Assembly: GCF_013167455.1 (NCBI RefSeq)
Contig: NZ_CP038328.1
Reading direction: 5' to 3' (one strand)
Source of the DNA: Escherichia coli O157:H7
Lineage (GTDB): Bacteria > Pseudomonadota > Gammaproteobacteria > Enterobacterales > Enterobacteriaceae
Length of the DNA stretch: 64,000 nt
Part shown: in pieces, positions 45,401 through 48,400 of the stretch
How the letters are laid out: each line of letters begins with the position of its first letter
Position numbering within the stretch: the first letter of the stretch is position 1
Position numbers: made by a program

Positions 45401-48400
45401 TAAATAGTACGATATGTACTTCACTTGGTCAATACAATTTGTTCTAAAACGGGGCGTTTTTTTACAACGCTTTGTATTTAATAGTATTGTTTTTTAGCGT
45501 GGGTGTATTGCCTCGGCGATGTAAGGAGAGATCAGAATTGCGTTGTTTAGTGAGTTGTATCTATTTATTTTCCAATAAATACAATTGGTTATGTGTTTTT
45601 TTGGGCGAGAGGAAAAGAAAACCCGGCATGGAGGCCGGGTTGATGATTAGCGGTGTGGCCTTGAGCGATAATGCTCACACACATGTTCAAGATTTCCATG
45701 CCTTATCCGTTCATAGGCATTCACATGAACTTCTCGATCGAATTGGTCATTCAAATTGTATGTAGACATCTGTGTTTTCTCATATTGGCGGCAGCCCTAC
45801 AACCGCTTGAAAAAATGTACCAGACGCGCTAAGGTTACATCGCAAATATTGTGTACCTTAACAAGGGCTCCTTTTGGAGGCTCTGGTTAAACAGCATCAA
45901 TGTCGGACTGGGGAGTTGGACATTGTGCTGAATGCTTTTGCATTATTGAGGCCGAACGTAAACCTTCAGAATTGAAGAGATGCGTTCGGCTTCTTCGTTT
46001 GTGATATCGTTAGGAATGCCTTTAATCGTTACTGTAACCCCTGATTCAGGTCGAAGAACTACTGGAAGATCATAGGTATGAAGTGCATTAGCCTTGCCTT
46101 CGACTTTTGTTGGTTCGCCAGTCAAATCTTTTTCCTCACTGGATTCTTTGTCAATCGGAGTGTATGGGATTTCTTCACCAGACTGGAAAGCTACAAACTT
46201 TTTGATTGCACTTTCCATGCGGCTTTTATATGCAGTAATGCTGCTGTCGCTAGGCTTCGGCTCAGTTGCGTTGATGTATCGCTCGGCAAGCTCATTCACA
46301 TCAAGCTGAGTAACATCACCCATTTCCTCTTCTTGGACTACCGTTAAGAGGCGAGCGGATGAGTTTTTTAAATTTCGAGCGGTGGCCTCCTTCATTATGT
46401 TCAGCGACATAAGCTCTTCAAGGAAGTCCTTGAATGCCTGCACGCTAACGTTTGACTTTGCCATTTGCTCTCTCTCTAAGTTATTGACTCAGATCGAGTT
46501 TATCCAGGAATTGATTTGCATGCAAGACTCAAGTCTTGAGAATTTCCGTTCAAGATCCACTCTCAATAAAAAAGGCCGCACCTCTGCGACCTTTCATCTC
46601 CTAAATCTCTTTTCTCTTACCTAAAGAAACAGCAGGCTGGGTCAGCCCTAACAACTTCAAGTGCATCGGTCAGAGAAAGCTCCGTGCTATACAGGTGTTA
46701 TTTCATATCTTTTTGCATCCAATAAATTTTCCATCTGTCCAGAGAGCGGATGCACTTGATTCTTGTTGATGGCAGGACGTTTTTTCACCTGCCTCACCCT
46801 GCCATACAGGACGCTGCTCACCGATATCTATCGTCCGGTCATTGATGTTATAGACAATATCCAGATCATTACGGATATACTCAGATGGCCTTATGCTTTC
46901 AATGAATAGATGAACTTCTTTTTGACCGCTTGATACTCATGGCCATTAAACTCCATCTATCCTCTTTACCCAAACGTCTCTTCAGGCCATTGGCTGGCGA
47001 TAACTTTCCCCACAACGGAACAACTCTCATTGCATGGGATCATTGGATATTGCGGGTTTAGTGGTTGTAGAAACACCTGACCGCTATCCCTGATCAGTTT
47101 CTTGAAGGTAAATTCATCACCACCAAGTCTGGCTATGCAGAAATCGCCGGGCTCAACAGCTTGCTCAGGGTCAACCAGAATTAACATCCCGTCAGGAAAA
47201 CTAGGTTTGGAACCTGTTGGTGCGGTCATTGAGTTACCTTCAACCTCAAGCCAGAATGCAGAGTCACTGGCTTTTTTGGTTGTGCTTACCAATCTCTCCG
47301 CATCACCTTTGGTAAAGGTTCTGAGTTCTGGAGAGAACATCCCAGCCTGAACATGAGAAAAAACAGGGTACTCATATTGTTTTTTAACTGGGGCCGATGA
47401 GTATTCGCCAACAGGTGAAAATGTCCCGTCGTGGTTGAATGATATGTTATCAATACCAAGGTATTTAAACACCACACCAATATCACTAAGAGATGGATGA
47501 CGAGATCCGCGCAACCAGTGTCCAATTCCACCCTGCGTCATACCTAGCTCTTCGGCTAACTTCTCTTGAGTTATGCCGAGCTCTTTCATTCTGGATCTAG
47601 CCAGTTCATACCATTTCATTTTCATGTCCTTATTATTACGCTCTGTACTGGAACCATCCATGCACAATGTGTATTTTTACTTGTATTTGAGAAGTACATA
47701 TTGTATTTTTTTATTCGTGGTTACTATGGAGGGCATATGAGCAACCTACGAAAATATCGAGAGTCACTGAATATCTCTCAAACAACACTTGCTAAGGCAG
47801 TTGGATGCACACAGGGAGCTATCGGACATTGGGAATCTGGTCGTCGCTTCCCAGACCTTAAAACATGCCGTGCTCTTGTTGCGTGTCTAAACAAGTTAGG
47901 CGCAAAAGTAAGTCTTGATGACGTGTTCCCGCCGGAGCACAAAGCCGCTTAATAAGCGGAGCCGCTCTTTGTAACAACGGACATTCGTCCTACGTCGCTG
48001 AAAAGCGAGTCCCAAGATATCTGACCAACTAAGGCCATATGCGTTTCCACGCATACCTTTCAACTAACTATTCACTATTGGAAATCTTAAGAAATGGAAC
48101 GAACAAGTTACAGCAAACTATCACAGCGCGACGTTGATCGCGCAGAAACAGATTTACTCATCAACCTGTCAACGCTTACACAGCGCGGTCTGGCAAAGAT
48201 GATTGGCTGTCATGAATCGAAGATAAGCAGAACGGACTGGCGGTTTATTGCTTCGGTCTTGTGTGCTTTCGGAATGGCATCAGACATCAGTCCGATTAGC
48301 AGGGCTTTTAAGTATGCGCTTGATGAAATCACAAAGAAAAAATCCCCGGCTGCCACCGAGGATTTTAAGCAAATTGATATGCAATTCTGAGGGAATTACT

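Follow-up and report, generated by a model that had tools for sequence, protein, structure and literature searches.

A conserved 40-residue micro-protein gene at the distal end of a putative mobile cassette in the immunity region of a Shiga toxin prophage

We report an analysis of a 40-amino-acid (aa) open reading frame (ORF) in the immunity region of a lambdoid Shiga toxin (Stx) prophage of Escherichia coli O157:H7. The prophage is contained in a 64,000-nucleotide (nt) stretch of contig NZ_CP038328.1 (assembly GCF_013167455.1), which was analysed as a whole and is referred to below as the window. The minus-strand ORF, which translates as MSTYNLNDQFDREVHVNAYERIRHGNLEHVCEHYRSRPHR, was confirmed at the position where the initial annotation had placed it (Table 1); it is preceded by orf173 and a structured spacer, and a gap of 5 nt (TCATC) separates its stop codon from a strong hairpin, also as had been noted. 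The hairpin, AACCCGGC-CTCCAT-GCCGGGTT followed by UUCUUUUCC, has a folding energy of -14.3 kcal/mol (z -5.0), and none of 200 shuffles folds as well. The ribosome-binding site (RBS) had been described as weak, and it is: the duplex of its GAGA with the anti-Shine-Dalgarno (anti-SD) sequence amounts to only -2.7 kcal/mol, and the stretch AGA-AAA-CAC-AGA directly precedes the AUG and reaches into it. An ORF of this size is unremarkable by chance (84 ORFs of at least 25 aa lie within 5.5 kb), and it is conservation, not length, that takes the observation beyond chance.

Among 5,426 complete E. coli genomes, 232 contain the ORF segment, as do 46 phage records, in copies that are at least 99% identical except for two Salmonella phage records. 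Divergent copies were recovered via the neighbouring gene orf173 and via the peptide itself, and five ORF lineages were distinguished: the window, an E. coli copy with the change H24Y (P0001), the Salmonella phage Oslo-like loci, Pseudescherichia vulneris (locus L031, 87% identity) and a metagenomic contig (L032, 76% identity). Conservation of the frame in related prophages, which had been proposed as a check, is clearly positive across these five lineages, and the length changes preserve the frame, with a 9-nt (three-codon) in-frame insertion in L032 and a C-terminal extension of one codon in the Oslo, L031 and L032 copies. The ratio of non-synonymous to synonymous substitutions (dN/dS) was computed with the Nei-Gojobori method for the five lineages in six frames. 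For the 40-aa frame dN/dS is 0.056 (pS 0.69, pN 0.10), with synonymous sites near saturation, and the values are 0.96 (the +1 frame) and 2.4 for the two other sense frames and 1.03, 0.27 (the mirror frame that shares wobble positions) and 2.67 for the antisense frames. Variable columns number 11, 6 and 29 at codon positions 1, 2 and 3, and double synonymous changes such as AGG to CGA occur in the 40-aa frame. On this sequence evidence the ORF is a real protein-coding gene under protein-level purifying selection in its own frame. The reading as a small terminal gene is therefore supported, and the hedge that the ORF may be non-coding is not upheld, given 0.056 in its frame versus 0.27-2.7 elsewhere.

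Table 1. Positions of the cassette, its flanking genes and other elements in the window (position 1 is the first nucleotide of the window).
Feature	Position	Strand	Comment
cI	46966-47667	minus	helix-turn-helix + S24
53-aa hypothetical protein WP_434087148.1	46703-46864	minus	PGAP/RefSeq; within the 500-nt cI-T0 gap
Terminator T0	46565-46595	minus	cassette upstream edge, between cI and orf173
Candidate sigma-70 promoter	46497-46525	minus	-35 TTGCAT 46525-46520; 17-bp spacer; -10 TAAACT 46502-46497
orf173 (VT2-Sap23 / H0093)	45943-46464	minus	173 aa; upstream cassette gene
Leader/spacer	45770-45942	minus	173 nt, structured; between orf173 and 40-aa ORF
Leader P1	45930-45892	minus	12-bp hairpin right after orf173 stop
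Leader P2	45887-45882 with 45824-45819	minus	long-range helix closing two hairpins
Leader P2a	45880-45878 with 45872-45870	minus	
Leader P3	45863-45852 with 45839-45827	minus	
Leader P5	45813-45808 (UUUUCA) with 45782-45777 (UGAGAA)	minus	covers the SD-like GAGA
Leader P4 hairpin	45806-45802 with 45792-45788	minus	
SD-like GAGA	45781-45778	minus	8 nt before AUG
EcOnc20 Hfq peak	45682-45807	minus	mapped via identical sequence; covers P4/P5, SD and first 29 codons
40-aa ORF (H0092 / BAA94120.1 of AP000422)	45647-45769	minus	stop codon included (TAA, 45649-45647)
Antisense 53-aa ORF (VT2-Sap22 and equivalents)	45671-45832	plus	phrog_14935
XECs114	45592-45699	minus	36 aa, MEILNMCVS...
Terminator hairpin and U-run after 40-aa ORF	45611-45641	minus	stem 45641-45634 / 45627-45620; loop 45633-45628; U-run 45619-45611
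N	44942-45286		on the minus strand, beyond the pL/nutL region, which comes after the terminator hairpin
cIII RNA thermoregulator	43963-44021		
JUMPstart element	4540-4577	plus	
his operon leader	29700-29823	minus	
STnc240	32120-32194	plus	
isrK	52852-52928	plus	Rfam
C4 antisense RNA	52954-53037	plus	Rfam
sRNA-Xcc1	53982-54065	plus	Rfam
Three tRNA genes	57647-57887	plus	directly upstream of stx2A (ORF to 58942)
STnc100	59298-59509	plus	Rfam; just 3' of stx2AB

The 40-aa peptide has the homologues P0001-P0003 and matches phrog_21154 across the conserved core (hmmscan E 5.2e-8), and a profile search of 1.84 billion representatives returned 96 clusters at E≤1e-3. Stand-alone proteins with lengths of 28-60 aa make up most of the family. 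Its signature reads V.V..Y.R.R.G..E.V..H.RS.P, with no variation at V16, Y19, R21, V30 and R35 and at least 90% conservation at V14, R23, G25, E28, H33 and P38; by its profile match and its invariant core residues the window protein belongs to this family. AlphaFold2 with the family alignment predicts a four-stranded beta-meander for residues 13-36, with a predicted local distance difference test (pLDDT) score of 85-96 in the core. No significant structural analogue of the predicted fold and no relative among solved structures were found, searches of Pfam, NCBIfam and PADLOC gave no significant match, and the peptide is not listed in the 'cryptic microproteome' supplements. A zinc ribbon or H.C.H metal site was rejected, H33 alone being conserved family-wide while H15, H24, H29 and C31 vary. 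The long repeat proteins P0055, P0113 and P0060 were likewise rejected as homologues, having only a short AY..R.G.L[DE].VC.H-like element in common with the family. Distant members are solitary and lie beside an S24 repressor, in a Q-holin gap on the opposite strand, in an integrase-bearing element or in a chromosomal neighbourhood. A C-terminal Q-x-x-hydrophobic-x-hydrophobic tail is present in 12 of 67 members versus 0.25 expected from shuffles; in alignment A5 it takes the form Q-[LYM]-x-[LF]-x-[FL] in P0054, P0056, P0058, P0073, P0109, P0116, P0123, P0135, P0140 and others. In form this tail is similar to the motif with which bacterial proteins bind the beta clamp. Because it is absent from the window protein, no conclusion is drawn from it.

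Relatives of orf173 were found across Enterobacterales; a scan of genome contigs for cassettes of this kind gave two loci only, and the scan of viral contigs was the productive one. At every distinct orf173 locus (33-100% identity; about 25 distinct downstream sequences) a same-strand small ORF of 40-61 aa follows 150-175 nt downstream and ends just before a terminator, and in nearly all cassettes the hairpin after the small ORF is equivalent to that of the window. The small ORFs belong to three classes, A being the window type, B a 47-aa CxxC...CGC peptide and C a 57-aa peptide with ...AHAYGYKCWSFPVR... (phrog_33859). Each of the three is strongly constrained by purifying selection, and in its own frame alone (dN/dS 0.056, 0.044 and 0.029 for A, B and C), and no homology among them was detected (hhalign probabilities ≤0.2%). 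On one Salmonella-type contig (L027/L057) the class-A ORF is broken after codon 23 (MATYNLNDQFDREVHVNAYERIRWEC), from a rearrangement or a different downstream sequence, and the ORF is thus an occasional pseudogene. An A-type leader is combined with an A or B ORF (the window; L054, L062), a C-type leader with a B or C ORF (L065; L060 and others), and a third leader type occurs in the Pantoea-type locus L066/L034; judging from these combinations, the cassette modules recombine. The spacer of the class-B cassette in L066/L034 is unrelated to the others, opens immediately behind the orf173 stop with a hairpin that resembles a terminator and does not contain the TAGCGG and AUCAAG motifs common to the other leaders.

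Upstream, homology between cassettes begins about 130 nt before the orf173 ATG and starts with T0, an 11-bp stem with a U-run (-15.9 kcal/mol, z -4.3) that is 90-96% conserved in L031, L054, L056, L060 and L065, where flanking homology begins. T0 has an A-tract upstream as well as the U-run downstream and may be bidirectional; it is not in the list of the consensus scan. Also within the stretch of homology that is transferred with the cassette is a candidate sigma-70 promoter, of which a TTGC.. -35, a TA(G)AAT/TAAACT -10 and the 17-bp spacing are kept across cassettes while the spacer sequence diverges; the consensus scan did not list it either. The cassette lies after cI, between cI and N, in the window and in L032, L054, L056, L060, L065 and L087, and elsewhere it is found after Q (P. 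vulneris, L031) or near tail genes (L066, L085). With its own terminator and its varied genome positions, the unit of T0, candidate promoter, orf173, leader, small ORF and terminator is, as far as the comparison of these loci can tell, a mobile moron that usually occupies the lambda rexAB slot. The hairpin behind the 40-aa ORF had been called the terminator of the immunity transcript. This agrees with lambda tIMM in position and homology, the hairpin being homologous to the lambda rexB-end/tIMM region, but the hairpin would mainly be the cassette's own terminator, because T0 and the conserved candidate promoter are situated in the interval from cI to orf173 and belong to what moves with the cassette. 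For the orf173 protein, the model (pLDDT 70) has an N-terminal four-helix domain, an acidic linker and a C-terminal beta-hairpin plus helix. The N-terminal domain weakly resembles the SAM-like core-binding domains of integrases; membership in Phage_int_SAM_1 was rejected as below threshold (E 0.047), and no family was matched among the PADLOC defence models, Pfam and NCBIfam.

The spacer together with the 40-aa ORF folds with z = -3.8, and in the leader fold the SD has an unpaired probability of 0.07, being buried by P5. The weak RBS of the ORF consequently looks regulatory, sequestered as it is in a conserved leader helix. RNAalifold was applied to seven A/B-type spacers, and 95.7% of the cells are paired compared with 29-49% in slid alignments, with 10 double-change pairs versus 0-2. 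The 16 class-C spacers share a five-helix structure of about 158 nt (e.g. L067:4514-4671; L060, L067-L088), in which 93% are paired versus 31-47% when slid, with 13 double-change pairs versus 0-4, a result that none of 500 shuffles reaches; the covariance model R1 made from it matches the leader of the class-B cassette L065 (E 4.5e-23). Rfam gave no match to the leader or locus at E≤1 over 40000-52000 and none there at gathering score in the scan of the window, and no Rfam match was found for the class-C leader RNA. In the 14-nt loop of P1 (45918-45905, minus strand) the sequence of the window, L031, L032 and L054 is a near-exact reverse-complement inversion of that in Oslo and L062, with the stem unchanged, which looks like a template-switch inversion.

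VT2-Sakai matches the interval 45560-46470 with 100% identity and has an equal cro-to-ORF spacing (2087 nt), which justifies a local mapping of published Sakai data (Sakai coordinate = window + 1,209,946; valid locally only). In the original VT2-Sakai record, AP000422, the ORF was annotated as H0092 and the hairpin as 'terminator for pRM transcript'. H0092 was later dropped from RefSeq and its Prokaryotic Genome Annotation Pipeline (PGAP), which have no gene there, and in NC_000902, FJ184280, AP012530 and other records it is replaced by the antisense 53-aa ORF. By ribosome profiling (RIBOseq), Hucker et al. 2017 (PMC5597208) reported XECs114 in the +1 frame, with 452-807 reads per kilobase per million (RPKM) for RNA and 88-135 RPKM for footprints in rich media in Sakai (S2 Table), and a ribosome coverage value (RCV) of 0.30 in LB and 0.09 in BHI. 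XECs114 shares 53 nt with the end of H0092 and continues across the terminator; the footprints cover the 3' half of the 40-aa ORF on its strand, and in that study they were assigned to the XECs114 frame. Ribosome profiling, the other check that had been named, is thus borne out as to footprints on the ORF strand, on identical DNA, and not as to frame assignment. Only intergenic ORFs were considered in that study (PMC5597208), and the 40-aa ORF may have been masked in the 'intergenic' filter by the antisense annotation. Moreover, Tree et al. 2014 (PMC4104026, Table S2) list EcOnc20, an orphan Hfq-crosslinking peak at Sakai 1255628-1255753 without Northern validation. Combined, these data show that lysogens transcribe the strand abundantly, that ribosomes associate with the RNA in a ratio below the average, and that Hfq makes contact near the start of translation. 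The anti-sRNAs AsxR and AgvB were considered at this locus and rejected, as both lie 3' of stx2B.

These conflicting labels correspond to different views of what is made from the locus. According to one of them it is a non-coding Hfq-binding small RNA (sRNA), or a 3'-end RNA, in which the ORF is incidental, and for this speak the peak in Hfq crosslinking and analysis of cDNA (CRAC) and the listing of EcOnc20 as an sRNA candidate in a review, the weak and sequestered SD, the low ribosome/RNA ratio and a strong 3' terminator of the kind typical of Hfq sRNAs. We consider this very unlikely: constraint at the RNA level cannot yield a dN/dS of 0.056 with near-saturated synonymous sites, an indel is in frame, the peptide belongs to a family with 96 clusters in unrelated contexts, EcOnc20 was not validated by Northern blot and, according to PMC4104026, ARN motifs close to SD sites are places where Hfq binds mRNAs as well. 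The region is coding, which does not fit a non-coding RNA; the mRNA could nevertheless have a dual role and also titrate Hfq or sRNAs. That XECs114 is the translated product, as one of 465 translated intergenic ORFs in PMC5597208, seems to us improbable in the extreme. Its frame has a dN/dS of 0.96, its start codon is absent in L031 and its stop shifts in every lineage, it crosses the terminator hairpin and U-run and so extends past the likely RNA 3' end, one of the authors' own classifiers labelled it 'pseudo' (PMC5597208), and its footprints overlap the end of the 40-aa ORF. We attach just as little credence to the opposite-strand ORF that GeneMark predicted, although it is annotated in several records and its frame is open in the Salmonella and L032 copies: phase arithmetic identifies it with the antisense frame at dN/dS 1.03, it is truncated and heavily altered in L031, its transcription would oppose that of the cassette without a promoter or terminator of its own, and constraint on a sense frame often keeps the antisense frame open as a side effect. 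Neither this frame nor that of XECs114 is kept in the most divergent copies.

A further question is whether the 40-aa protein acts by itself. It might be an obligate partner of orf173, as a sensor or regulator with its effector, a toxin-antitoxin-like pair or an anti-phage system with an RNA component. A small ORF stands at a fixed distance behind every one of the approximately 25 distinct orf173 relatives, the pair moved together to the post-Q site in L031 with a conserved leader RNA in between, and the unit occupies the rexAB slot. Against an obligate partnership, three unrelated micro-protein classes have been swapped behind closely related orf173 genes, class-A relatives also occur alone, without orf173, and PADLOC and Pfam gave no match; on balance we hold this alternative to be a serious one but rather less probable than autonomy. 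We would assign a still smaller chance to the wider proposal, which is compatible with the data, that orf173, leader and micro-protein gene constitute an unrecognised three-module prophage system. In such a system a structured leader of about 150-175 nt, of two or more types each with covariation support, would gate the translation of the micro-protein, and interchangeable unrelated effectors (classes A, B and C) would stand behind a DNA- or RNA-binding partner protein.

The explanation that we favour, and think probable as a whole, is that the 40-aa ORF is a real gene, the distal cistron of a mobile unit, with leader-gated translation and an accessory role. In the lysogen the cassette's own promoter would give an orf173-leader-H0092 mRNA of about 0.9 kb that ends at the terminator behind the ORF. 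Initiation at AUG 45769 would be kept low by the weak SD and its pairing with the upstream UUUUCA in P5, and Hfq, possibly with an sRNA or the orf173 protein, may modulate access to the SD. The product would be a compact beta-meander micro-protein with the invariant residues Y19, R21, V30 and R35, and it would act alone as an accessory (moron) factor, since its close relatives are solitary in other prophages and integrative elements. We infer an accessory role for this protein in the lysogen, with the leader keeping its translation low. Most speculatively, and in view of the slot that it occupies, the protein might bind and modulate a component of the host or of an incoming phage, with lysogenic conversion or superinfection exclusion as the outcome. 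Several points weigh against this explanation. Searches brought up no protein of known function or structure that resembles it, so that the proposed function is guesswork based on where the gene lies in the genome, and its invariable pairing with orf173 could mean joint action, not autonomy. The protein itself is known from sequence and RNA-level data and not from direct detection, the published footprints were assigned to the XECs114 frame and not to the 40-aa frame, and the SD is weak and buried with a low ribosome/RNA ratio. Likewise, the cassette promoter was deduced from conservation only, and the A/B leader structure derives from the same sequences and represents about 5-6 independent lineages. 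The class-C model R1 does not match the window leader with default filters or with filters off, and homology between the two leaders was therefore rejected.

With regard to the genomic setting, the window does not correspond to Sakai Sp5, as the his leader is present and the stx region is spaced differently. The his operon leader, STnc240 and the JUMPstart element are in the window, and the prophage therefore adjoins the his region and not wrbA, the Sakai Sp5 site; its site is of the sbcB type, typical of the Stx2c phages 2851 and 1717. A genome-wide Sakai offset via AsxR failed because the prophage in the window is a relative of Sp5 that lies close to the his operon. The window (and PGAP) has a single intact LexA-family repressor ORF of about 232 aa for cI, compared with VT2-Sakai RefSeq NC_000902, where cI (10900-11595) is split into a 'c1 repressor protein fragment' and a shorter cI. 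Between cI and T0, PGAP/RefSeq places a hypothetical protein. Rfam matches at gathering score include isrK, C4 antisense RNA, sRNA-Xcc1 and STnc100, and three tRNA genes precede stx2A (Table 1).

The locus lies in the immunity region of the Stx1/Stx2-converting phages of E. coli O157:H7, and the analysis resolves four conflicting labels (H0092, the antisense GeneMark ORF, XECs114 and EcOnc20) at a place where RefSeq has no gene. With the right reading, an sRNA candidate and two annotated genes prove false and one real gene is recovered; the analysis also defines a widespread unannotated micro-protein family and exposes a conserved architecture of partner gene, structured leader and swappable micro-protein in the lysogen-expressed rexAB slot. 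The cassette is accordingly a concrete candidate for lysogenic conversion or phage exclusion in prophages of enterohaemorrhagic E. coli (EHEC). The three-module system, if real, would represent a novel type of cassette that is expressed in the lysogen, serves conversion or anti-phage functions and includes an RNA sensor, and autonomy, if true, would make the class-A micro-proteins a new effector widespread in mobile elements.

Finally, the locus may be compared with the closest known systems. H0092 of AP000422 is the identical ORF, with the same terminator and with oL/pL and nutL annotations, as a bare 'hypothetical protein' call without supporting evidence. EcOnc20 and XECs114 share locus and strand with it and provide RNA, Hfq and ribosome signals on identical Sakai DNA, but the pattern of substitutions favours the 40-aa frame alone and is at odds with their readings as an sRNA and as a +1-frame gene of 36 aa. 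The window protein has the motif of phrog_21154 (phage proteins of about 47 aa) in common with the 96 cluster representatives, and, unlike about one sixth of the family, it has no C-terminal tail. Lambdoid morons are promoter-gene-terminator inserts (Juhala et al. 2000, as cited in PMC4104026); like them, the cassette has its own terminator(s), an apparent promoter, varied prophage positions and expression in the lysogen, and unlike them it consists of two cistrons split by a conserved structured RNA, with an exchangeable distal cistron (three unrelated micro-proteins). As in the lambda cI-rexA-rexB-tIMM operon, its place is between cI and pL/N, and its terminator and the sequence on the pL side are homologous to those of lambda, but T0 and the candidate promoter separate it from cI, and neither RexA/RexB-type nor catalogued defence homology was found for orf173 or the small proteins in PADLOC, Pfam and NCBIfam. 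In the case of lambda cIII, a small phage regulator of about 50 aa, alternative mRNA structures around the SD and start codon control translation, as the leader would do here; cIII has no sequence or structural homology to the 40-aa protein, and the leader described here is about 170 nt long and composed of several helices.

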